NCBI GenBank assembly: GCA_002898015.1
Contig: BDTM01000035.1
Coordinates: 42,401 to 106,400 of the forward strand
Origin: a bacterium BMS3Bbin03
Lineage (GTDB): Bacteria; Zhuqueibacterota; JdFR-76; BMS3Abin05
DNA length: 64,000 bases
Reading direction: 5' to 3'
Position numbers and translations under genes: made by a program
Notes under the pieces: generated by a model
Databases searched by the model: none
Told to the model about the DNA's origin: nothing
Seen by the model: the letters and a program-made list of their open reading frames with translations, nothing else
In this document: piece after piece, positions 5,071-44,944 of the stretch
How the letters are laid out: each line of letters starts with the position of its first letter
How positions within the stretch are numbered: the stretch's first letter is position 1

Positions 5071-5661
5071 ATGGCAGACGACGCGAATTCACGCTATTTA
5101 ATCATCGGATTGGGGAATCCCGGCAAAAAGTATCAACACACCCGTCACAATGCCGGTTTCCTGGTGGTTGACGCTTTTGCCGAAAAGCACGGCCTGAGTT
5201 TTCGGCAGGGCAGAGGGGACTATCTCCAGGCAAACGGGGTTATCAATCGCAAAAAGATCAGTCTGATTAAGCCATTAACCTTCATGAATAATAGTGGTTT
5301 AGCCGTTCAACAGGCGGTTCATTTTTTTAAGGTCGATCTTTCGAATATCCTTGTGGTCGTGGATGATTTTCAGATTCCGCTCGGAACCATTCGAATTCGG
5401 AAGCAGGGAAGCGGCGGCGGGCACCATGGGCTGGCTTCCATTATTAGTCAGCTTCAAACACTCAATTTCCCCCGAATGAGAATAGGGATCGGAAAAGAGC
5501 AGGCCATTCCAAATTGGGTAACGTTTGTGTTATCTGATTTTGCCCGGGAGGAATTTGAGACGTTTAATGCGGTTGTCCCCATCGCAGTTGAGGCTATTTT
5601 GTGTTTTATTGAAGAAGGAATTGAAAAGACGATGAATCAATACAATCGAAAAAACGACTGA
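5071..5661 (+). CDS. pth: Peptidyl-tRNA hydrolase
   Basis: YLIIGLGNPGKKYQHTRHNAGF is the canonical Pth N-terminus. Confidence 0.9.
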   Translation: MADDANSRYLIIGLGNPGKKYQHTRHNAGFLVVDAFAEKHGLSFRQGRGDYLQANGVINRKKISLIKPLTFMNNSGLAVQQAVHFFKVDLSNILVVVDDFQIPLGTIRIRKQGSGGGHHGLASIISQLQTLNFPRMRIGIGKEQAIPNWVTFVLSDFAREEFETFNAVVPIAVEAILCFIEEGIEKTMNQYNRKND

Positions 5662-7589: not shown

Positions 7590-7667
7590 TTTTTATCAAT
7601 TGATTTTTCTTTTAATATTCGTTAAATTTCAAACAAAAGGGTTGGGAAAAATTTTGCGGAGGTGAAG

Positions 7668-7886
7668 ATGGAAGAAATTGTATTTCCGGAATGTCAAAAA
7701 TGCAGCACTGGTGTATTGGTGCCGTTGTCTGATTATGGAAGAGATGGAGCCACCATTATGTACAAAGCGTGGGTCTGTACAAATCCGGAGTGTGGTTTCC
7801 ACATTCGAATTGACAATGGAGAAGTCAGTTTTGGCCAGACAAAGGATCAATCGAATCGAAGGAAAAGAATAGTTTTAAAGAGATGA
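7668..7886 (+). CDS. Small zinc-ribbon protein (CxxC...CxxC)
   Basis: 72 aa with CQKCSTG and CTNPECG cysteine pairs. A GGAGGTGA Shine-Dalgarno site lies 5 nt upstream of the ATG. The ORF-track start at 7662 sits too close to this site. Confidence 0.45.
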   Translation: MEEIVFPECQKCSTGVLVPLSDYGRDGATIMYKAWVCTNPECGFHIRIDNGEVSFGQTKDQSNRRKRIVLKR

Positions 7887-28007: not shown

Positions 28008-28179
28008 ATTAGTGAAATTAAGAAATTGTCATAAAATTACCTGCTCGATAGTATAAAGAAATCTTTAAGGTGACAGATCTTTCCGAAGTTTAAGCGTTCA
28101 ATTCTTGAGGGAATTTTTAAAGCAAATTCAATTGCCGGGGAACGGGGTTTTTTAGTTCATTGCTTTTCAGGAGGAGGTG

Positions 28180-28227
28180 ATGAATCTTTCCTTTTTTTAT
28201 TCTGCTGTATTCTATTTCATGATTTAA
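28180..28227 (+). CDS. 15-codon leader ORF (MNLSFFYSAVFYFMI) with a strong Shine-Dalgarno site
   Basis: AGGAGGAGGTGATG is followed by 15 codons (4 Phe, 2 Tyr) and a TAA stop. It ends 20 nt before the GGAAGGAGGT site of the downstream outer-membrane-protein gene. Confidence 0.3.
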   Translation: MNLSFFYSAVFYFMI

Positions 28228-28246
28228 AAGGAAGGAGGTCGTATCG

Positions 28247-34200: not shown

Positions 34201-35223
34201 ATGAAACGCGTGATTTTAACGATGACTCTGATTTTGGGCCTGTTCTGGAATCTGGCGCAGGCACAGGAAATGAGCCGCGTGGCCACTGCCAGCGCCCAGT
34301 TTTTAAAATTCGGTGTGGGTGCACGTGCCCTGGCTCTTGGCAGCGCTTATGTGGCTTTTGAAAATGATCCGTTTTCACTCTATTGGAATCCCGCCGGTAT
34401 CGCCTCCATACAGGGTACGGCTGTGGCTGTTTCCAGGAGTAATTATTATGGCGGCATATCGCACAACTTTTTTGGAACCGTTCTGGGTCTGGCGGAAGGC
34501 GCTTTAGGCCTGAGTGTGACTTACATGGGTACAAATGAAATTGAAGTGACTACGCTTTCTTCGCCCGACGGAACCGGAACCTATTACGATGTCAGCGGTA
34601 TGAGCGTCGGATTGACGTATGCCCGAAATATTACCAACGTTTTAAAAATGGGAATCACGGCGAAACTGGTTCGGGAGCGTATTTACCGGGAAACGGCTAA
34701 CGCACTTGCAGTTGATTTCGGCTCCATCATCAACACCGGATTGGGAGGCGTCAAACTGGCCATGTCACTGACGAATCTTGGGCAATCCATGCAATTGCGG
34801 GGTCCCGATTTGCGCGTCTCGCACGACCGGTATCCCAATAATCCTGCAGAGGCGAACGTAAAAGCGGATTTATTTACGGACAAATGGCCGCTGCCGATGG
34901 TGTACACCATTGGCATCAGGACAGATATCGTGGGGGGTGATGGAATGAATATTCCCAGCCAGGTGCATCGATTGACCGTTGCATTTTCCGCCAATGATGC
35001 CTGGGATGCGGTTTTAAGAGCCAATTACGGACTGGAATATGAATGGCGAAACTTGTTCTCCATCCGAGCGGGTTTCATGCAAAAGTACGATACAGCCCGT
35101 TTTACACTTGGCGGCGGCGTGAGGTATCAATTGGGACGTACAACGATGCTGCTTGACTATGCGTATGTAAATTACAGTTATTTGGGCAGTACCAATCATT
35201 TTTCTCTGGAATTTCACTATTAA
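34201..35223 (+). CDS. porV: PorV/LptO-like outer-membrane protein (T9SS shuttle, FadL-like barrel)
   Basis: It has a signal peptide and the N-terminal motif SAQFLKFGVGARALALGSAYVAFENDPFSLYWNPAGIA, which matches the conserved PorV N-terminal box (FL.I..GARA..MG.A....D..S..WNPAG). The barrel is Gly/Tyr-rich and ends in an aromatic residue. Confidence 0.6.
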   Translation: MKRVILTMTLILGLFWNLAQAQEMSRVATASAQFLKFGVGARALALGSAYVAFENDPFSLYWNPAGIASIQGTAVAVSRSNYYGGISHNFFGTVLGLAEGALGLSVTYMGTNEIEVTTLSSPDGTGTYYDVSGMSVGLTYARNITNVLKMGITAKLVRERIYRETANALAVDFGSIINTGLGGVKLAMSLTNLGQSMQLRGPDLRVSHDRYPNNPAEANVKADLFTDKWPLPMVYTIGIRTDIVGGDGMNIPSQVHRLTVAFSANDAWDAVLRANYGLEYEWRNLFSIRAGFMQKYDTARFTLGGGVRYQLGRTTMLLDYAYVNYSYLGSTNHFSLEFHY

Positions 35224-35264
35224 ATTGCTTATATTACTTTGTGTTAATTTCTTATAGTCCCCTG

Positions 35265-35407
35265 AAAGGAGGTGAGGTAGCCCAACCCATTTGAATGAAT
35301 CCTATCTTATGAAATCGCGAAAGGAGGTGATATAGCAGTTGTATCGGATGCTGAATTCGATGAAAAAGTTGCGATTTAATCAAAAGCATGAAGGAGGATT
35401 AAAATGA
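35265..35407 (+). promoter_or_regulatory. 5' leader with repeated AAAGGAGGTGA (perfect anti-Shine-Dalgarno complement) motifs and overlapping mini-uORFs
   Basis: AAAGGAGGTGA occurs at 35265-35275 and 35330-35340, and GAAGGAGGA at 35390. A 19-codon uORF (35348..35407, MLNSMKKLRFNQKHEGGLK) ends in ATGA, overlapping the main ATG at 35404. Confidence 0.5.
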
Positions 35408-37542
35408 AGAAAAATTTTTGGGTTGCATTTTTAAGTTTGATATTGGTTTTAGCGCTGTCGTTGACGGTAATGGCGAATAACAAAAGATATGCGGTCATTC
35501 GTCCGGGTGTCCCGGGTCAGCAGAGCGATGTCATTTTTATGACCCCGAGTGAGTTGAATTCACCCAATGTGGTGCAAATTATTCAAAAGCGGTTTGCAAA
35601 ACTGAGTGCCTCCGAGGGCATTATTGATACGTTAAAACATACATTTAGCGGCGTCAACTTCGGTTTTGCAGATGGCGATACAATGGCTGCTTTCTTTCGT
35701 CCGCCTGCCGGCTGTATTGTGAAATCCGTTATCATGACCTTTCAGAAATGGGGCGGTCAATTAACATCAGCCATTAATCTCTCAATTTATGGGTCCAATT
35801 ACCATGCCACTGAAATTCCGGATAGTCTTTTATATGGTAATTTCAGTCCCATCAATCTGGGATGGTGGACTGCAAGTGGAAATTGGGCACCACAGGTGCC
35901 TTATAGCTTCTATCCTTTAGGTGACCTTCTCTGGGGCGATTTTCCCATCAGTCTGGATCCGTCGAAAGATTCCCAAACCATTGATACACCGATGATTTAT
36001 CTGGGTTTCGAACCGGATGTGAAGCGGAATGACTTCATGATTGTGGCGCGCCCGGTGCAGGGAAGCGGCCAGTCGACCACCGGTATTTCGGCAGGCGCTG
36101 CCAACGGTGATCCCATGTTTGTGGGCTTCAAATGCTATCATGCCGGTCGTCTCGGTGAAACAACCACACCCTCCTGGTGGATTCGCGAATATGCCTGGAC
36201 AGTATGGGTCGTGGTTGAATTTTATGAAAATACCCCACCGAGTATTGATATTACAAAGATGTCCAATACGTTTTCCGCCGGACCATTTACGGCAAAAGCC
36301 ATGATAAAAGATCTTGATGCACATGATGCGACTCAGGCCGGCGTGGCGGAAGCCTATTTGCATTACAGCACGAATGGTGCGGCATGGGATTCTGTGGCCA
36401 TGAGCGGTCCGGCATCCGGAGGTGAATTCTCTGCCGTGATTCCGGCGGTGACAGCCCCGACATTTGTGTATTATTATATAACGGCAAAAGACCCACCCGG
36501 ACTTTATACCACAACAGCGGCGGCGCCCAAGAAATTCTATGTCGGCATTAAAACCGGTTCAAACATTCTGCTGTTCAACCAGGGCGGCGGATACGCTTCC
36601 GTATTTGATTCTGTTTATATAAACGATCTGGATGCGCTTGGGTATAAATATGACTATATGTTTGGCAGTGTCGACGAGACCGTAAAAGCGGAAAACTACA
36701 AATACGTCATCGTTCCCGCAAACGGCAATCCTATGCCGTCTTTATCCGATAGTCTGGGTTTAAACAAATTTGTAACGCTGTTGGATAATGGCGGAAATCT
36801 ATTGGTCAGCTCTGACGAAGCATTCGGATACTATACCTATGGTTGGCCGGGAGATACCCTGGCAACACCGGGCGGTTTCTTCCATGATTATCTTCATGTG
36901 AAAGAAGAATTCAGCGATGCCCCCTACGACAAGATCATGGATGTGCCGGGCGACGGTTTTGCAGACGCCTTAACCGATACGATTAAATTAACATTTCCGT
37001 CTGGTGTAGAAAACTATAGTGATGCCGTTTTGCCTACGGCAGATGGCTCCATGTTGTTTACGGTTACGCCGGATACATTTGCCAGCAAAACCGGCGGAAC
37101 TGTTAATGGTGCAGGTATTCTGTACAACGGAAATTATAAGGTTGTCTACTTGCCGTTTATTCTTGCAACATTAAACCAAAATGATCGCCAGACCATTATG
37201 AAGAGTGCGTTGGATTTCTTCGGTGCTACGAGCGATGTGTCGGAAGAAAATACGAATTCTCCGTACACGTACACATTACATCAGAATTACCCGAACCCAT
37301 TCAATCCGACGACGAATATCTCCTACAGCGTGGCGAAAGCGGGACAGGTGAATGTGGCTGTTTTCAATGTGATCGGCGAAAAAATTGCCGAGCTTGTAAA
37401 CGGTTATAAAACTGCCGGTTCTTATGGCGTGACGTGGAACGGAAAAGATAATGCCGGGCAGAATGTGGCCAGTGGTGTGTATTTCTACAGGATCAAAGCC
37501 GGTAATTTTACAATGACTAAAAAAATGGTTTTAATGCGGTAA
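35404..37542 (+). CDS. Secreted protein of unknown function with a T9SS C-terminal sorting domain
   Basis: 712 aa with a signal peptide. The C-terminus is NYPNPFNPTTNISYSV...VAVFNVIGEKIAELVNGYKTAGSYGVTWNGKDNAGQNVASGVYFYRIKAGNFTMTKKMVLMR, a canonical Por_Secre_tail. Confidence 0.7.
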   Translation: MKKNFWVAFLSLILVLALSLTVMANNKRYAVIRPGVPGQQSDVIFMTPSELNSPNVVQIIQKRFAKLSASEGIIDTLKHTFSGVNFGFADGDTMAAFFRPPAGCIVKSVIMTFQKWGGQLTSAINLSIYGSNYHATEIPDSLLYGNFSPINLGWWTASGNWAPQVPYSFYPLGDLLWGDFPISLDPSKDSQTIDTPMIYLGFEPDVKRNDFMIVARPVQGSGQSTTGISAGAANGDPMFVGFKCYHAGRLGETTTPSWWIREYAWTVWVVVEFYENTPPSIDITKMSNTFSAGPFTAKAMIKDLDAHDATQAGVAEAYLHYSTNGAAWDSVAMSGPASGGEFSAVIPAVTAPTFVYYYITAKDPPGLYTTTAAAPKKFYVGIKTGSNILLFNQGGGYASVFDSVYINDLDALGYKYDYMFGSVDETVKAENYKYVIVPANGNPMPSLSDSLGLNKFVTLLDNGGNLLVSSDEAFGYYTYGWPGDTLATPGGFFHDYLHVKEEFSDAPYDKIMDVPGDGFADALTDTIKLTFPSGVENYSDAVLPTADGSMLFTVTPDTFASKTGGTVNGAGILYNGNYKVVYLPFILATLNQNDRQTIMKSALDFFGATSDVSEENTNSPYTYTLHQNYPNPFNPTTNISYSVAKAGQVNVAVFNVIGEKIAELVNGYKTAGSYGVTWNGKDNAGQNVASGVYFYRIKAGNFTMTKKMVLMR

Positions 37543-37584
37543 TTTAGACTTCATAAGAAGAAAATTGCATGTGTTTAACGAATG

Positions 37585-37623
37585 GCAGAGGATGGGAAAC
37601 CGTCCTCTGCTGCTTATTTTTTG
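37585..37623 (+). terminator. Rho-independent terminator
   Basis: The GCAGAGGA / TCCTCTGC stem is 8 bp with a 10-nt loop, followed by TGCTTATTTTTTG. Confidence 0.6.
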
Positions 37624-37823
37624 TTTATTATCAATCCGTAAAGGATGCGGTTACGGTGTCGCCGGCTTCATATCTGCGTTTTTACAGGTTCCGAGCGTTC
37701 TTGCAAAATACGTTTGCCGAAATAGTGGTCTATCCGGTGCGTTGCCGTCCTTCCCAGAAAAACTTTTCATCACCAGCAAATTGGTAATCTTGCGTTTATA
37801 TTAAATGAATATTTAAGGAGGCT

Positions 37824-40800
37824 ATGAAACGGATGAGACGAACAATTTATTTTTTGCTTGTTATGGGCATCGTGTTTTCAAGTGCCATTTTAAAAGCCGA
37901 GAGACCTGTAAAAAGCCAAAAATACCTGTTTGATGGAAGAGGGTACGTTCAACCTCACAAAGTGCTTTTAAAAGTAAAAACTTTTGCTTCCCTGAGGATG
38001 AAAGGGATTACTTTTTACAAGCCGGCATCTATAACCGGCCTGGCGTCGGTCGATCGGGTATTGGAAAAGTTTGAAGTAAAGTCCGTTAAAAAATATTTGC
38101 AGCACAAGCCCATTCCTGCCGGAATACCCGATGATATTGACCGGATTTATGAAGCACGATACGCCTCAGATGCACCGCCGTGGGAAGTGGCAAAGGAACT
38201 GGCAAAAGATCCGAATCTGGCGTATGCGGAACCCGTGCCGGTGTTTTTTTTAGAGGATACACCCAATGATCCCATGTATTCTCAACAGGCTCATCTGCCT
38301 CAAATTCATGCGCCCGAAGCCTGGGGTGTTCAAAAGGGCGACAGTTCTGTGGTTATTGCCATCGTCGATTGTGGCGTGGATTACAAGCATGAAGATTTAG
38401 CGGCAAATTCCTGGATTAATGAAAAGGAAAAAAATGGTCTGCCGGGAGTTGATGATGATGGAAACGGCTACGTGGACGATATTTATGGGTGGGATTTTGG
38501 CGAAAACGATCCGAATCCGATAAATCCCCCTCCGGATCCGCTCGGTTATTATGCCCACGGTACCCATGTGGCGGGATTGGCGGCGGCCGTCACAAACAAT
38601 GGTGTGGGGGTTTCGGGATCAAGCTGGAACTGCCGGTATATGGCGGTTAAAGCGGCTAAAGATGATGACCCGCGGTCCATTACGAATGGGTATCAGGGGA
38701 TCACGTATGCGGCAGATAACGGCGCCGATGTCATCAATCTGAGCTGGGGCGGCGGCGGTTATTACCAGGCCGGTCAGGATGTGGTGGAATATGCGTACAA
38801 CAAGGGATCCCTTGTTGTGGCTTCTGCCGGAAATGATCCAAATGATAAAGTGCATTACCCGTCCGGCTATCGCTATGCACTGAGCGTGGGTGTGGTTGAT
38901 TCTCACGATCGCAAACCGGCCTGGGGTACCTGGGGTCTTTCCGTAGATGTGATGGCGCCGGGCGTTCAGGATTTATCGACTCTGCCGGGAAACAAATACG
39001 GCAGGATGTCGGGCAGCTCCATGTCTGCCCCCGTGGCTGCCGGAGTGGTCGCTCTTGTGAAAGCCCGGCATCCGACTTGGTCTGTGCAGCGCATTATGAA
39101 ACAGGTTGCTTTTACCGCCGATAATATCGACGCCGAAAATCCGGGTGTCGAAGGATTGCTTGGCGGGGGAAGAATCGATGCCTATCGTGCTGTAACGGAG
39201 ACAAACCCCACACCTTCGCCCCCTAAAATAAAACTGATCAGCACGAAGATTTCCGATTCGGATTATGGGAACGGCAATGGGGTATTCGAACAGGGTGAAA
39301 CGATTACGATTGAACCTAAATTCCATAATTACTCCATGGGGACAGGAACAAATGTTCAGTTCTCTCTGAACACAGGTGACGATTCCAGCATTGTACTGAT
39401 TGCCAAATCAAGTACCGTCTCTTTTGTGGATGAGGAATCTGTTTTTGGTTTGCCGGAGAAGTTTTCTTTTTTAATAAAACAAAATGCGCAGTCTCACATG
39501 ACGCGATTTTTCATCGGATACACGACGAGCGAAGGATTCACGAGAGCGGATAGTTTCGATGTCTTGATCGGCAAGACTCCTGTCCTTATTGTTGATGACG
39601 ATGACGGCCAGAATAATGTTCAGGGGTTCTACATTTCGAGTTTAAAAACATTGGGCGTGAATTACGGAATCTGGACTCATGTAACGATGGGAACGCCTTC
39701 CAGCAGCTATCTTTCGAGTTTTCCGATTGTAATCTGGTCTTGCGAATGGGCCTTTCCGTCATTGGACTCCAGTGACCGGGCGGTATTACAAAAATATCTG
39801 GACGGCGGCGGGAACCTGTTTATTTCGGGGCAGGATATTGGTTGGGATTTGGTCGATCCCACAAGCGACGATCATAATGCTTCAAGCGAACAATTCTTTA
39901 AAGATTATCTGCATGCGGAATATGATGCAGATAATGCGAATGATAAGCGGGTCCGGGGTGTTTTCGGAGATCCCATCGGCAATGGCTTAAATTTTGAAAT
40001 TAACCAGCCGGGGCGGGATATTACAAATCAGTATCCCGATGTTCTGAGCCCTCTCCCCGGTGCGTTCCCCGTGTGGCAGTATGAGATAAATGGGGGTTAC
40101 GGAGGTGTGCGATTTGCCGGAGATTACCGGGTGGTTTATTTTGGTTTCGGTTTTGAAGCCATTGATGCGCCTACCGCCATCACCCAGGCGGGCGAGTATT
40201 CAAAAAATCGCGTGACCGTGATGCGAAGAGTGCTCGATTATCTTAATCCTATTCAGATGACGCCTTTAAAAGATTCGGAAAATATGGAAATTACATTTCC
40301 TGTGAATGCGATTCTGAAGGGTGATACGGTTGATCTGAAGGGAATGGTGCTTTATTGGAAATTTAAAGATGATTCCGTGTTCCGGGCCGTCCCAATGAGT
40401 CGTCAGGACCGTTTGTTCAAGGCCACGATCCCGGCCGCGCATCGCACAACGCATATTGATTATTATCTGGAAGTGGAGAATCAATATTATAAATGGAGTG
40501 CCCCGCCGGGAGCACCCCGTAACTATTATCAATTTTTTGTAGGACCGGACACGATTCCTCCCGTAATTGTTCATGAAAATCTTCCGGACATGTTTAATGG
40601 TGAAAAACCGTATTCCGTTCATGTCAAAGTGACCGATAATATCAGTCTGGATATGAATTCGGTTTTTGTTCACTATAAAGTCCGTTCCGTTGAGGACAGC
40701 CTTCAGCTCAGCCCCGGGGCGGAAACCGGTCTGTTTAAAGGGTCGATCCCGCCGGTGGCCGCTTATGGGGATACGCTTGTGTATTGGTTTACGGCAAAGG

Positions 40801-41639
40801 ATCGATCTTTGTTAAAAAACAGAGCCGTGTCTCAAAAATATCGTTTTCTTGTGGGATTGGACAACTTTGAACGGGGGTTATCCGGCTGGGTTGTTAACCC
40901 GCCCGGGTGGGGGCTGGACAATACGAATGCGCACTCCGGGGAATTTTCCATAAACGACAGTCCGGGTAAAAATTACGGTTTGAATGAAGTCACCATCATC
41001 CAAACGGATTTTGGATTCGATTTTTCCAGGGCCAAAAAAGCAATGCTGAGCCTGTGGACGAAATATTATCTTGAATTTGGTCATGATTTTGGTTATATTG
41101 AGGTTAGTCCGGATGGTGGGTCCACATGGAAACAATTGGGTGAAAAAATCGGCGGTGTTTCAACCCGGTGGAAAGAAATCACGCGTTCACTCACGCCTTA
41201 CACCGGAGCCGGTTTCGATCAGGTCAAACTGAGATTTCGAATGGTTTCGGACAATCATCAGGGTCCCCCCTTTATGGGCTGGTATATCGATGACGTTCAA
41301 GTCATAGAAGGTAAAGATCTAACAAGCGTCGCGTCAAACTCAAATGAAAATACGATCCCTAAAAGCTGGGAAGTATCTCAAAATTATCCAAATCCTTTTA
41401 ATCCTGAAACTCGAATTTCTATCCGGGTGCCCGGAAAACAGCTCGTAAGAATCGATGTCTATAATAGTATTGGGCAGCATGTGATCACCCTTGTCAAAAA
41501 AGTTTTACCTGCGGGGAATTATCAGTTTAATTGGAAAGGTGTGAACCCAAAAGGGGAAGAAATGCCGTCCGGACTCTATTTTTTAAGGGTCAGAGGTAAA
41601 AAATTTACAAAAATTCAAAAAATGGTTCTCATGCGCTAA
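37824..41639 (+). CDS. Subtilisin-like serine peptidase (S8) with large accessory domains and a T9SS C-terminal sorting domain
   Basis: 1271 aa. The catalytic triad is in context: Asp in VIAIVDCGVDYKHEDL, His in HGTHVAGLAA, Ser in GSSMSAPVAAGVVALV. The C-terminal CTD is NYPNPFNPETRISIRV...GLYFLRVRGKKFTKIQKMVLMR. Confidence 0.8.
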   Translation: MKRMRRTIYFLLVMGIVFSSAILKAERPVKSQKYLFDGRGYVQPHKVLLKVKTFASLRMKGITFYKPASITGLASVDRVLEKFEVKSVKKYLQHKPIPAGIPDDIDRIYEARYASDAPPWEVAKELAKDPNLAYAEPVPVFFLEDTPNDPMYSQQAHLPQIHAPEAWGVQKGDSSVVIAIVDCGVDYKHEDLAANSWINEKEKNGLPGVDDDGNGYVDDIYGWDFGENDPNPINPPPDPLGYYAHGTHVAGLAAAVTNNGVGVSGSSWNCRYMAVKAAKDDDPRSITNGYQGITYAADNGADVINLSWGGGGYYQAGQDVVEYAYNKGSLVVASAGNDPNDKVHYPSGYRYALSVGVVDSHDRKPAWGTWGLSVDVMAPGVQDLSTLPGNKYGRMSGSSMSAPVAAGVVALVKARHPTWSVQRIMKQVAFTADNIDAENPGVEGLLGGGRIDAYRAVTETNPTPSPPKIKLISTKISDSDYGNGNGVFEQGETITIEPKFHNYSMGTGTNVQFSLNTGDDSSIVLIAKSSTVSFVDEESVFGLPEKFSFLIKQNAQSHMTRFFIGYTTSEGFTRADSFDVLIGKTPVLIVDDDDGQNNVQGFYISSLKTLGVNYGIWTHVTMGTPSSSYLSSFPIVIWSCEWAFPSLDSSDRAVLQKYLDGGGNLFISGQDIGWDLVDPTSDDHNASSEQFFKDYLHAEYDADNANDKRVRGVFGDPIGNGLNFEINQPGRDITNQYPDVLSPLPGAFPVWQYEINGGYGGVRFAGDYRVVYFGFGFEAIDAPTAITQAGEYSKNRVTVMRRVLDYLNPIQMTPLKDSENMEITFPVNAILKGDTVDLKGMVLYWKFKDDSVFRAVPMSRQDRLFKATIPAAHRTTHIDYYLEVENQYYKWSAPPGAPRNYYQFFVGPDTIPPVIVHENLPDMFNGEKPYSVHVKVTDNISLDMNSVFVHYKVRSVEDSLQLSPGAETGLFKGSIPPVAAYGDTLVYWFTAKDRSLLKNRAVSQKYRFLVGLDNFERGLSGWVVNPPGWGLDNTNAHSGEFSINDSPGKNYGLNEVTIIQTDFGFDFSRAKKAMLSLWTKYYLEFGHDFGYIEVSPDGGSTWKQLGEKIGGVSTRWKEITRSLTPYTGAGFDQVKLRFRMVSDNHQGPPFMGWYIDDVQVIEGKDLTSVASNSNENTIPKSWEVSQNYPNPFNPETRISIRVPGKQLVRIDVYNSIGQHVITLVKKVLPAGNYQFNWKGVNPKGEEMPSGLYFLRVRGKKFTKIQKMVLMR

Positions 41640-41656
41640 TACCGAAAAAGGAGGTG

Positions 41657-41779
41657 ATGAGATTTTTATCCGAAAAATATTATTTACAAAAAGGAGGTGA
41701 GGCGAACAAAAAAATCCTTGTTGCGGATGAAAAAACCAGTCATGGATTAAAATTTATCGACTGGCAAATCGTAAAATAA
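41657..41779 (+). CDS. 40-codon small ORF in the cargo-gene leader (MRFLSEKYYLQKGGEANKKILVADEKTSHGLKFIDWQIVK); speculative
   Basis: It starts 2 nt after AAAGGAGGTG and contains a second AAAGGAGGTGA internally. It ends 27 nt before the next cargo gene. Confidence 0.2.
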   Translation: MRFLSEKYYLQKGGEANKKILVADEKTSHGLKFIDWQIVK

Positions 41780-41806
41780 TTTCAAACCAAAATGGAGGGT
41801 AACAAC

Positions 41807-44800
41807 ATGAGTAAAAGGTTGTTTTTATTTGCCACTGCGGTCATGTTGGCTGTATTTGGTGTGTTTGCGGTTTATGCTTCGAATAGTCCCCAAAAGTCGG
41901 TTGTGACAAGCAAGGTTAAAACCGTTCAGAAAAAGAAATTTCAAATGATTCGTTCTAACGGAACTGAAGCGGCCACGGCTGCCACACCATTATTCTTCGA
42001 TGATTTTGAAGGCACTAATCCCACATGGTGGCCCGATGCAAGCTGGAACAACACGGGTGATCCCGATCCCAATACCGGGCGCCAGTTTTCGAGAAAATCG
42101 ACGTGGGAATACACCGACTCATCGTATAGCAGCCCCACGCATAGCTGGCATAATTTGGTCAATGCCAATCAGGATCTGGACTTCTTGTTCTCACCTGTGT
42201 TTCACGTACCGGATTCGGTGACGATTGACGGGATTACCAGTGTACTAAAGGGCGGCTTTATCCAGTTTATGGCCAAAAAAGGCGGCAAAGGCATACTGAA
42301 TGTTTTTGTGAGCGCAGCCACTCCCCTTTGGGAAGTTGTATCCGATGATCCTCACAGCGGAGCCAATAATTATAATATGACTCAACCCAGTAACCCGATG
42401 CTGCATCAGTGGTTAATTTCTCCGAAAATTGATTTAACCGGAAAAACGGCGCCCAAACTGGATTTCTGGCACAATTATATTTCCGAAGACAAGTGGGATT
42501 ATCTGGCTGTAGATGTGTCTACCGACAGTTTTGCCACTTATACGAATCTGGCGTATTATACGGGCGAACAGGATGCCTATACAGAAGTAAATCTGGATTT
42601 GTCGGCTTTCGCCGGCGAGCAAATCTGGTTCCGTTTCCGCTACGTAGCCGATTATGGAGCAACAGCAGATAACGCGCATTGGGATGTGGATGACATTCTG
42701 GTTGCCGATGGCACCGATACGGTATTCTTTTCCGGTGCAGAAACTGAACCTGACCCCTTTACAAAGGCCGGGTTCATGGGCGGTACATCTGTTGCGGCAT
42801 TTAATACCGAACAGGATTGGGGCCTTGTCGATTTGGGTAATGTCCTTCTGAAAGGCGTTAAACCGGGTGTGGATGCGCGTTTGGCGTTTCAATGGACTAC
42901 TTCAGGAGACACCACGTTAACCGGCGCAGGCATCTATGTGGATGATGTCTCCGTTATTCCAATGGGAATGCAGCATGTCGATTTAGAAGCTGTTGGCGCC
43001 GCCGGCTTAAACAACGCTGCCCTTGGCAGACCGCTTAATGCAAAAGTTGTGGTTGCCAATGCGGGTCTCGATACGTTAAGCGGCCGTATTTCATGGCTGG
43101 CAAAAGTCTTTAAAAATGTAACTCCCGACAGCAGTGCTCTTGTCGGCAATATGGTTGGTTTTCAGCAAGTCAGTGGTTTCACTCCCGATTCAGTTATCTA
43201 TATTCCAACGCTGCAAAACACACGTTGGGTTCCAAAAGAACCGGGTGATTACACATTGGATGTGGATGTCATTTTCAATGGTGACACTTACATGTCCAAT
43301 AATAATGTGAAGGTAGATTTCACCGTACTCGGGCCTCCTTTTGCCATTCCGGTCTATCGTGAAGATTTCGAGCCCAGAGCCGGCCAGACGTCCTTAGCAG
43401 ATTTCGGGTGGACGGTTGACAATGGCGGCGGCGGTTCACACACTTGGGTTTATGATACCTGGATATATGGCTGGGGTCCGGTCATATCAGGATATTTTTA
43501 CGATTGGACGGCTGATTCTGCCAGTGCGGCACAGGCATTAGATGAAACGCTGACCAGTCCTGAAATTGACATTTCTAAGGTCAATTCGCATAATGTCCTG
43601 TTTTTGAACTGTTATATCTATTTCCGGCCCGGCCACGCCGGTCTGGGAGCCCCCTGGGGTGCGCAACCCAGCGATATGACGATTCAATATTCCGTAGACG
43701 GCGGCGCCTGGCAGCAAGCATTCTACTGGGCTGATAACGATACACTGCCCGGAGATTACAATCGTTGGCCGCAGACCCGGTTGGGTGTGCCGTATTATCA
43801 CAAAACCGACATGGTGCTTCCCGGAGCAGCCGGTGGAAAAACACTCCAGATCCGCGTCAACTTCACTTCTACGAACTCGTATCTCTTTGGCATCAACTTC
43901 GATGAGGTCATCATTTACCAGGGTCTGATTAATCCATTGTTAGGCAAGGTGAAAGATGTGCCCAACGATAATGGTAAACAAGTCCGCTTGAATTGGATGA
44001 GATCCTGGAACGATCTGATGACCGCTAAGGGTGAAGGTTTGCAGAATCCGGTGACGCATTACAATGTCTGGAGAGGCTTTGGAATCCCGGGCGCGGGAGA
44101 AGCCAGACATGTGACTTCAACGGAAGCCATGCTGCGTGGTGCTGCCGGCATGAAAATTGGTGACAAAGTCATCGTCGATGACAACAACATGCTGTGGGAA
44201 CTGGTGGGCTCTGTTCCGGCAATGGGATGGAAATTCTATTCCTACGTCGCTCCGACCCTTGAGGATTCTGTCAGCACCTCATTCATGGTTTCTGCTCATC
44301 TGACCAATCCGATGGTATTCGATTACTCAAATATCAGTGCAGGCATATCCATCGATAATCTGGCGCCGCACATACCGGGTGGACTGACGGGTGGTCAGGT
44401 AGATTCCCATGTAAAAATCGTCTGGCAGCCGGTAACCGATAATGACCTGATGTTCTATACGGTTTATCGCAGCCAGGGAAATGGTAATTTGGTGCGATTG
44501 ACAAGAACAACGAGCACCTCTTATGTAGATGCGAATGTCACTCTGGAGAAGACTTATCATTATGCCATTACCGCCACCGATTTTGGGTGGAATGAGAGTC
44601 AAAAATCGGAAAAACTGTCGGTTTCCGTGACCAGTGTGAATGAAAAAGTTTCTAATGCAATCCCGACGGATTACGCATTGAATCAAAATTATCCGAATCC
44701 ATTCAATCCGACCACGGAAATTCGCTACGCGATTCCAAAGAGTGCAAATGTGACCATTTCAATTTATAACGTATTTGGTCAGAAAGTACGCACGCTGGTA

Positions 44801-44944
44801 ACCGGATACAAGTCTGCCGGCTATTATGTGGCAAACTGGAATGGCCGTTCCGATAATGGTCGCGAAGTCTCTTCCGGTATTTATTTCTATGAAATTCATG
44901 CCGGTACATTTACGGCCACAAAGAAGATGACTTTAATGCGGTAA
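41807..44944 (+). CDS. Secreted protein with an FN3 domain and a T9SS C-terminal sorting domain
   Basis: There is a GGAGGG site 6 nt before ATG 41807, and a signal peptide. The FN3-like module is VKIVWQPVTDNDLMFYTVYRSQGNGNLVRLTRTTSTSYVD. The C-terminal CTD is NYPNPFNPTTEIRYAI...GIYFYEIHAGTFTATKKMTLMR. Confidence 0.65.
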   Translation: MSKRLFLFATAVMLAVFGVFAVYASNSPQKSVVTSKVKTVQKKKFQMIRSNGTEAATAATPLFFDDFEGTNPTWWPDASWNNTGDPDPNTGRQFSRKSTWEYTDSSYSSPTHSWHNLVNANQDLDFLFSPVFHVPDSVTIDGITSVLKGGFIQFMAKKGGKGILNVFVSAATPLWEVVSDDPHSGANNYNMTQPSNPMLHQWLISPKIDLTGKTAPKLDFWHNYISEDKWDYLAVDVSTDSFATYTNLAYYTGEQDAYTEVNLDLSAFAGEQIWFRFRYVADYGATADNAHWDVDDILVADGTDTVFFSGAETEPDPFTKAGFMGGTSVAAFNTEQDWGLVDLGNVLLKGVKPGVDARLAFQWTTSGDTTLTGAGIYVDDVSVIPMGMQHVDLEAVGAAGLNNAALGRPLNAKVVVANAGLDTLSGRISWLAKVFKNVTPDSSALVGNMVGFQQVSGFTPDSVIYIPTLQNTRWVPKEPGDYTLDVDVIFNGDTYMSNNNVKVDFTVLGPPFAIPVYREDFEPRAGQTSLADFGWTVDNGGGGSHTWVYDTWIYGWGPVISGYFYDWTADSASAAQALDETLTSPEIDISKVNSHNVLFLNCYIYFRPGHAGLGAPWGAQPSDMTIQYSVDGGAWQQAFYWADNDTLPGDYNRWPQTRLGVPYYHKTDMVLPGAAGGKTLQIRVNFTSTNSYLFGINFDEVIIYQGLINPLLGKVKDVPNDNGKQVRLNWMRSWNDLMTAKGEGLQNPVTHYNVWRGFGIPGAGEARHVTSTEAMLRGAAGMKIGDKVIVDDNNMLWELVGSVPAMGWKFYSYVAPTLEDSVSTSFMVSAHLTNPMVFDYSNISAGISIDNLAPHIPGGLTGGQVDSHVKIVWQPVTDNDLMFYTVYRSQGNGNLVRLTRTTSTSYVDANVTLEKTYHYAITATDFGWNESQKSEKLSVSVTSVNEKVSNAIPTDYALNQNYPNPFNPTTEIRYAIPKSANVTISIYNVFGQKVRTLVTGYKSAGYYVANWNGRSDNGREVSSGIYFYEIHAGTFTATKKMTLMR

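Follow-up and report, generated by a model that had tools for sequence, protein, structure and literature searches.

To our knowledge, stabilizers of the STAB-SD type are documented almost only in Firmicutes, and their documentation rests on one well-studied case. In the cry3A leader of Bacillus thuringiensis, a non-initiating Shine-Dalgarno (SD) sequence ~125 nt ahead of the start is bound by the 30S subunit and acts as a block to RNase J1 (PMC4113751). Because this SD halts 5'-to-3' degradation, it defines a stable processed transcript (PMC4113751; for the STAB-SD itself, Agaisse and Lereclus 1996, and for the role of RNase J1, Mathy et al. 2007, both via PMC4113751). STAB-SD-like motifs have also been described in the inlA, inlC and uhpT leaders of Listeria monocytogenes (PMC5449094), and the upstream regions of cry genes contain up to three SDs each (PMC12970973).

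The locus described here lies in a 64-kb stretch of DNA (hereafter the window, the whole of the sequence analysed) assigned to the BMS3Abin05 lineage, for which a literature search found no papers; one protein of the window shares 100% identity with an entry listed under 'bacterium BMS3Abin05'. The placement in a Calditrichaeota-type lineage is based on how P0140 and P0144, two orthologues of a neighbouring gene, are labelled (Calditrichaeota bacterium). The window contains a row of genes encoding exported proteins: a TonB-dependent receptor (28247), a PorV-like protein (34111), a type IX secretion system (T9SS) cargo (35404-37542), an S8 subtilase with a T9SS sorting domain (37824-41639, + strand), and an InhA-like MAM/T9SS C-terminal-domain cargo (41807-44944, + strand), the product of which begins with a signal peptide. 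The leader of the last gene, immediately downstream of the S8 gene, carries two copies of an unusually long SD-like sequence. With modest confidence, we favour the interpretation that these two copies are non-initiating 'super' SD sites on the mRNA, forming a tandem element of the STAB-SD type, because the anatomy of the leader matches that class.

Long Shine-Dalgarno matches in the window

Read from 5' to 3', the TAA of the S8 gene (41637-41639) is followed by taccgaa, a first AAAGGAGGTGA, TG agattt..., aca, a second AAAGGAGGTGA, ggcgaac and, at the start of the cargo gene, aaaATGGAGGGTAACAACATG (41807). Copy 1 (AAAGGAGGTGAT then G; 41647-41659, + strand, with the 11-mer at 41647-41657) lies 7 nt 3' of the S8 stop codon and matches the anti-SD over 12 nt (-19.6 kcal/mol), and an ATG is placed 2 nt after its GGAGG. 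Copy 2 (AAAGGAGGTGA; 41690-41700, + strand) lies 43 nt after copy 1 and has an 11-nt match (-18.1 kcal/mol). The initial annotation had given the positions of the two copies as 41647 and 41691, the first of which is correct and the second off by one. The GGAGGTGA cores of the two copies start 157 and 114 nt, respectively, before the ATG at 41807, which has its own ribosome-binding site (RBS), GGAGGG (41794-41799; RBS and start together 41794-41809, + strand), with a duplex energy of only -9.8 kcal/mol.

In the whole window, AAAGGAGGTGA had four exact matches, all on the + strand (35265, 35320, 41647 and 41690), and no further match was found on either strand when one mismatch was permitted. 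The remaining pair forms another array, in the leader of the T9SS cargo gene 35404. Its copy 1 (GAAAGGAGGTGA; 35265-35275, + strand) is kept in the orthologous loci L129-L133, and its copy 2 (GAAAGGAGGTGAT; 35320-35331, + strand), likewise shared by the orthologues, has a 13-nt match from 35319 (-23.1 kcal/mol), its GGAGGTGA starting 81 nt before the ATG at 35404. Outside the motif, the 35-kb and 41-kb leaders displayed no similarity, and a duplicated cassette was therefore rejected as the source of the two arrays. In addition, the leader of the TonB-dependent receptor gene 28247 carries a single 10-nt copy (AGGAGGTGAT then G; 28172-28181, + strand), which ends 66 nt short of the gene; the RBS of the gene itself, AAGGAGGT, is at 28232. 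A metagenome locus (L035) carries two copies upstream of a receptor resembling that encoded by 28247; in this locus, a long near-perfect inverted repeat with ~20-bp arms (atactcgttacgggttg...caacccgtaacgagtat, about 5350-5500) lies between the tandem copies and the TonB-receptor gene.

Base for base, AAAGGAGGTGAT is complementary to the canonical 3' tail of bacterial 16S rRNA, ...GAUCACCUCCUUU. The canonical tail was assumed because the organism's own 16S 3' end lies outside the window, and a search of the fetched loci for a 16S 3' end found none; the anti-SD of Calditrichae is given as CCUCCUUU in a published survey (PMC10783764). All 111 GGAGG sites in the window were counted, and each was extended along the anti-SD complement. 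Twenty-six of them lie 2-13 nt before a long ORF, and these matched only 5-8 nt of the complement. The five longest matches in the 64 kb (13, 12, 12, 11 and 10 nt) were the four copies and the site at 28172-28181, none of which stands at a real start. A sixth site, GGAGGTGA at 7658, serves as an ordinary RBS. The small ORF that it precedes (72-74 aa; RBS and ORF within 7658-7886) encodes two CxxC pairs, is zinc-ribbon-like and lies between a DUF3307 gene and a YbbR-like gene. The predicted duplex energies with the canonical tail ranged from -18 to -23 kcal/mol for the leader copies (11-13 nt), as against about -10 to -12 kcal/mol for the true RBSs of the same genes. The leaders thus contain what defines the position of a STAB-SD, a site complementary to 16S rRNA (canonical tail assumed) well upstream of the gene's own RBS. 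The proposal of the initial annotation that the motif is a ribosome-binding or standby element draws its support from this perfect complementarity over 11-13 nt.

An organism that uses GGAGG-type SDs as widely as this one could in principle produce such sites by chance, or retain them as a neutral, functionless relic of SD-rich sequence. However, dinucleotide shuffles of the window gave a mean of only 0.02 exact matches, and none of 100 shuffles reached the four that were observed, making a chance origin scarcely credible. The initial annotation had noted that a motif frequency equal to the k-mer background would undo its interpretation; four exact 11-mers where 0.02 were expected, and real RBSs that match over 5-8 nt only, place the motif far from that background.

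Conservation of the motif and divergence of the leaders

Relatives of the 41807 protein came from one reference genome (L001) and, for all others, from metagenome assemblies; they comprised close orthologues with 68-72% identity (L001, its near-duplicate L004, L002, L003 and L005), L006 with 40% identity, and L007 together with its near-duplicate L008 with 37% identity. Seven non-redundant relatives of the 41807 gene (37-72% amino-acid identity) and five of the 35404 gene (33-73%) were compared, and each has one to three copies in its leader. For the 35404 gene, these relatives are L129-L133 (73, 69, 48, 34 and 33% identity), G+C-rich contigs included. The exact motif was therefore kept in 12/12 non-redundant related loci of two genes in which the leader flanks had diverged, and its retention down to 33% protein identity again contradicts the view of the motif as a neutral relic. 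In the 41807-type leaders, (A)AGGAGGTGA occurs twice in L001-L006 and once in L007/L008, and it is almost absent elsewhere in these loci. When the close leaders (the window, L001, L002, L003 and L005) were aligned, the conserved parts were the end of the upstream gene, AAGGAGGTGATG at copy 1 (invariant across all five), copy 2, and the start codon together with its true RBS; essentially nothing else could be aligned. At the true RBS and start of the 41807 gene, the block AAAA(T/C)GGAGGGTA..AACATGAGTAAAA was kept in the orthologues.

The geometry of the leaders was also roughly preserved. Among the close MAM-cargo leaders, 114-116 nt separated the last GGAGGTGA from the ATG in all five, and among the leaders of the 35404 orthogroup the figure was 73-84 nt in six; the intervening sequence (41693-41807 and 35323-35404 in the window, and its counterparts in the orthologues) was nevertheless not conserved. 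Copy 1 invariably began 7-12 nt past the stop codon of the preceding gene in the five close orthologues. The spacing between copies was 40-62 nt in most leaders and 94 nt in L006 (values of 40, 42, 43, 46, 48, 55, 62 and 94). Several of these spacings (40, 43, 43, 40, 55 and 94) equal 1 modulo 3, but conservation of reading frame between copies was rejected because the spacing in L003 is 42 nt and the L003 leader ORF ends before copy 2.

Every copy lies on the sense strand, and the spacing is variable (40-94 nt). A direct repeat upstream of co-functional genes could be an operator or promoter element that acts at the level of DNA, with a transcription factor binding there to control the cargo genes, but a constant strand and a spacing of 40-94 nt with no helical phasing are not what such an element would display, the motif lies downstream of the predicted promoters in L006 and L089, and its identity to the anti-SD complement would have to be a coincidence; we consider this explanation very improbable. 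In L089, the predicted promoter (TTGACA-17-TATATT) stops 8 nt short of the first GGAGG, so that a transcript starting from it would carry copy 1 at its extreme 5' end. In L006, a perfect predicted promoter is located about 70-80 nt upstream of copy 1 (82 nt for its -10 element), and in most other leaders no convincing promoter was predicted. Across the leaders, the predictions neither put copy 1 consistently close to a transcript 5' end nor revealed a promoter that keeps a constant distance from it.

Structure prediction gave no indication of a structured cis-regulatory RNA. No Rfam family matched the whole window at the gathering score, and at E<=10 nothing relevant was found in 35100-42000; the consensus fold of the five orthologous leaders amounted to a negligible -5.5 kcal/mol over 188 columns, so that neither an Rfam family nor a conserved secondary structure accompanies the motif. 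Sequestration of the motifs in RNA structure, raised by the initial annotation, was not borne out, as the predicted unpaired probability of the copies (~0.5) equals the leader mean and there is no consensus fold; nor was the true RBS consistently buried. A 12-bp hairpin (CCAGTCATGGAT/ATTTAT-GACTGG; 41736-41764, + strand) was predicted between copy 2 and the true RBS. L001 and L003 have hairpins of other sequence at a comparable position, and in the 35404 orthogroup (window, L129 and L130) hairpins follow closely on copy 2. A conserved hairpin after copy 2 was nevertheless rejected, since only some leaders have one and the z-scores ranged from -3.2 to +1.7.

These observations bear on the possibility that the copies bind a trans-acting regulator of secreted and outer-membrane proteins, either a CsrA-like protein recognizing GGA or a small RNA with an anti-SD-like CU-rich UCACCUCCUUU. 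Several GGA sites in one leader are typical of CsrA targets and are present here, and the motif marks a specific subset of exported-protein genes, not all of them. The conserved block, however, is 11-13 nt long, well in excess of a GGA core, and reproduces the complement of the 16S tail at every base, and the copies are not consistently presented in hairpin loops. Moreover, the same tandem pattern is found on contigs whose G+C contents span ~30-67% and which are probably from unrelated lineages (see below), for which a universal rRNA partner is a better fit than a lineage-specific factor. We therefore regard a trans-acting regulator as improbable; it fits the data less well than the STAB-SD-type interpretation, as do the DNA operator and chance.

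Short ORFs in the leaders

As the initial annotation stated, the ATG at 41657 opens a 40-codon ORF that contains copy 2, and the translation of this ORF, MRFLSEKYYLQKGGEANKKILVADEKTSHGLKFIDWQIVK, is exactly as quoted there (41657-41779, + strand; ATG 41657-41659 to TAA 41777-41779). The final base of copy 1 is at the same time the A of this ATG. Copy 2 is read in the ORF as K-G-G-E, and from the stop codon it is 14 nt to the GGAGGG at 41794-41799 and 27 nt to the ATG of the cargo gene (41807). At the equivalent ATG of copy 1, the ORFs comprise 40 (window), 52 (L002), 10 (L003), 20 (L001) and 50 (L005) codons, and the equivalent ATG at copy 2 of L006 opens only 6 codons. The only residues shared by the leader ORFs are KGG(D/E), which are encoded by copy 2 itself, and in L003 the leader ORF terminates before copy 2. 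Homologues of the 40-aa ORF, which would have marked it as a real protein, were sought with HMMER among 1.84 billion representative proteins; this exhaustive, profile-free search returned only the ORF itself, a 40-aa gene call in public data (P0145), and two marginal internal matches to long proteins.

The SD-ATG gap is also unfavourable. A gap of 2 nt is well under the range that supports SD-led initiation, and the real starts in the window have gaps of 5-8 nt, the ATG at copy 1 being closer than any of them. At no copy did a start codon at workable spacing open a conserved ORF. With no homologues, unrelated ORFs in the orthologous leaders and an ATG only 2 nt after GGAGG, the 40-codon ORF is best read as an incidental open frame and not as a conserved gene. 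What would identify a leader peptide or a regulatory upstream ORF (uORF), namely a conserved sequence, length or stop position, is absent, and, as expected of a STAB-SD, no functional protein is predicted in silico to arise from the site.

The conclusion of the initial annotation that conservation acts on the RNA and not on a peptide agrees with these results, the motif being exact in all 12 loci and the small ORF having no homologues. It had further argued from the same motif occupying different reading frames in the two leaders. The motif is present in both, but the 35-kb leader holds no + strand ORF of at least 20 codons containing either copy, so that there is no frame in that leader with which to compare. 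The motif is conserved independently of its flanks, is accompanied by no conserved peptide or structure, and is associated with genes for exported proteins.

One feature of the motif was not accounted for by complementarity to 16S rRNA. In leaders with a T9SS context (the window, L001-L007, L013, L035, L042, L057, L074, L080 and L089), the lineage consensus was AAAGGAGGTGATG, and the base following GGAGGTGAT was G in 18/30 copies and C in 3/30; the G creates an ATG 2 nt after GGAGG. Pairing with 16S rRNA does not call for this extra G, and ribosome parking by itself leaves its enrichment unexplained. This unexplained G keeps alive the main rival of our interpretation, in which the copies initiate short uORFs of arbitrary sequence and it is translation of the leader as such that matters. 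Such translation could cover the long leader against Rho termination or nucleases, or it could serve as a coupling or standby relay, in which ribosomes that terminate at the S8 stop codon are handed on by copy 1 and then copy 2 until they reach the true start.

Besides the ATG that directly follows GGAGGTG in those 18 copies, where the pairing-favoured C is found in only three, a relay of this kind would suit the position of copy 1 shortly after the upstream stop codon in all five close orthologues and the fixed 114-116 nt between copy 2 and the ATG. In both L002 and L005, the end of the uORF overlaps the main start. In the 35-kb leader, a 22-codon TTG ORF (MYRMLNSMKKLRFNQKHEGGLK; 35339-35407) starts 11 nt after copy 2 of that array, and its TGA overlaps the ATG at 35404 (ATGA), an arrangement that would also suit coupling. 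Nevertheless, the GGAGG-ATG gap of 2 nt contrasts with the 5-8 nt at real starts, ~40% of the copies have no adjacent start codon at all, including copy 2 at 41690 and both copies of the 35-kb leader, the ORFs are erratic in both length (6-52 codons) and end point, and many leaders, such as those of L006 and L089, have no upstream gene from which ribosomes could be coupled. We thus judge translation of the leader to be unlikely as the function of the copies, although it is the strongest of the alternatives.

Distribution beyond the two orthogroups

Within the window, the element does not behave as a general signal of T9SS cargo, a possibility that was rejected because the S8 gene 37824 and the C-terminal-domain (CTD) genes 12128 and 31107 have no motif. 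In the lineage loci, only 1 of 11 CTD genes beyond the two orthogroups carries it, and the raw enrichment in these loci (14/24 versus 2/84) is inflated by the way in which the loci were collected. The element in the lineage loci is therefore gene-specific and not general to T9SS cargo.

Metagenome contigs were scanned for AAGGAGGTGA-N28-58-AAGGAGGTGA, which yielded at least 120 loci. Among the matches listed, the copies lay inside long ORFs, as coding repeats, in 43; the second copy was the true RBS in 28; both copies were far upstream of the next gene, as in the window, in 27; and the contig had no downstream gene in 22. By a crude predictor, a signal-peptide-like N-terminus was called in 26 of the 55 proteins encoded downstream of the intergenic matches listed, compared with 47 of 303 other ORFs in the same loci (p = 7e-7). 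The downstream genes among the matches listed encode T9SS cargo (L013, L057, L074 and L089), an S8 protease (L080), a TonB-dependent receptor (L035) and about seven ABC solute-binding proteins. The contigs with the tandem pattern before exported proteins range from about 30% to 67% G+C, a span which indicates that the lineages are probably unrelated.

In the 28 listed loci in which the second copy is the true RBS (L015, L025, L027, L029, L030, L037, L039, L052, L059, L119 and others), the first copy lies 40-70 nt upstream of it, and the downstream gene in many of them encodes a lipoprotein-like or ABC solute-binding protein. These loci suggest that an upstream decoy SD is common to highly expressed genes for exported proteins in several phyla.

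Ribosome parking and comparison with known systems

Under the STAB-SD-type interpretation, each copy would pair with the 16S 3' tail over 11-13 nt, far more strongly than the real RBS 114 nt downstream, and this stronger pairing is the reason to propose that a 30S subunit or a stalled initiation complex docks at each copy without any meaningful protein being made. The spacing of 40-62 nt (94 nt in L006) would leave room for both copies to be occupied simultaneously. The parked ribosomes would guard the leader against 5'-end-dependent decay, either by an RNase J-type 5'-to-3' exonuclease or by the entry of a 5'-end-dependent endonuclease; among the part of the window ORFs that was scanned, no RNase gene was identified. 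At the 41-kb locus, no terminator was predicted between the S8 gene and copy 1 or the cargo gene 41807, and copy 1 begins 7 nt past the S8 stop codon. On this arrangement, and by analogy with cry3A, the parking ribosomes probably act after processing of an S8-cargo co-transcript, where they would set the 5' end of a stable, processed, cargo-only transcript. A side effect may be that ribosomes are held near the true start, and the net outcome would be high and stable expression of an abundant secreted protein. Upstream of this locus, a strong intrinsic-terminator-like hairpin with a T-run is located at 37583-37612, 3' of the cargo gene 35404; the S8 gene that follows this terminator has a 280-nt leader in which the motif is absent.

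As a long shot, the AAAGGAGGTGATG 13-nt sites at their fixed geometry might form dead-end initiation complexes, in which the SD duplex and the ATG are too close together, and thereby sense the availability of free ribosomes. They would then define a post-transcriptional regulon in T9SS-using Calditrichaeota-type lineages that gates secreted proteases and outer-membrane receptors by translational capacity.

The locus provides a clean, comparatively supported example of the STAB-SD type in an uncultured lineage, a new phylum and a new class of genes, arranged in tandem before a T9SS cargo and a TonB receptor, with the element still present where the proteins encoded downstream are only 33% identical. 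If confirmed, ribosome parking at decoy SDs would be a widespread means of boosting the mRNAs of exported proteins, and 5'-end-dependent decay would be implied in the Calditrichaeota-type phylum. Confirmation would also yield a rule for annotation, in that a very long SD match far from a start would denote a leader element and not the start of a small gene. The element could be usable as a portable expression enhancer.

Compared with classical standby sites, such as those of Escherichia coli tisB and the MS2 coat gene, which are unstructured, have no SD complementarity, lie near the start and serve a structured RBS, the copies described here are alike in that an upstream site is proposed to hold the 30S subunit before the real start. 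They differ in that structure does not consistently occlude the true RBS, which stands at a distance of 73-116 nt, the copies themselves being unpaired with a probability of ~0.5. The resemblance to control by upstream ORFs or leader peptides lies in the ATG that follows many copies and opens short leader ORFs; unlike in such systems, the peptide, its length and its stop position are unconserved, and the SD-ATG gap is 2 nt. The upstream SDs of Listeria and of the cry genes are cases from Firmicutes and are mostly untested, whereas the present element belongs to a Calditrichaeota-type lineage, and we know of no report for the Listeria or cry motifs of comparative conservation as deep as 33-73% protein identity.

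The closest counterpart is the cry3A STAB-SD. In both cases, a perfect complement of the 16S 3' end is located ~100 nt or more upstream of the start in an untranslated leader, starts no conserved protein, and precedes a non-cytoplasmic protein that is, or here would be, very highly expressed. Copy 1 directly follows an upstream transcribed region, which recalls the processed -558 to -129 transcript of cry3A. In contrast to cry3A, the element in the window has two copies (one to three elsewhere), its complementarity extends over 11-13 nt instead of 9 nt, and the motif often runs directly into an ATG. The present element is found in a Gram-negative lineage of the Calditrichaeota type, and the genes that follow it encode T9SS cargo and a TonB receptor.
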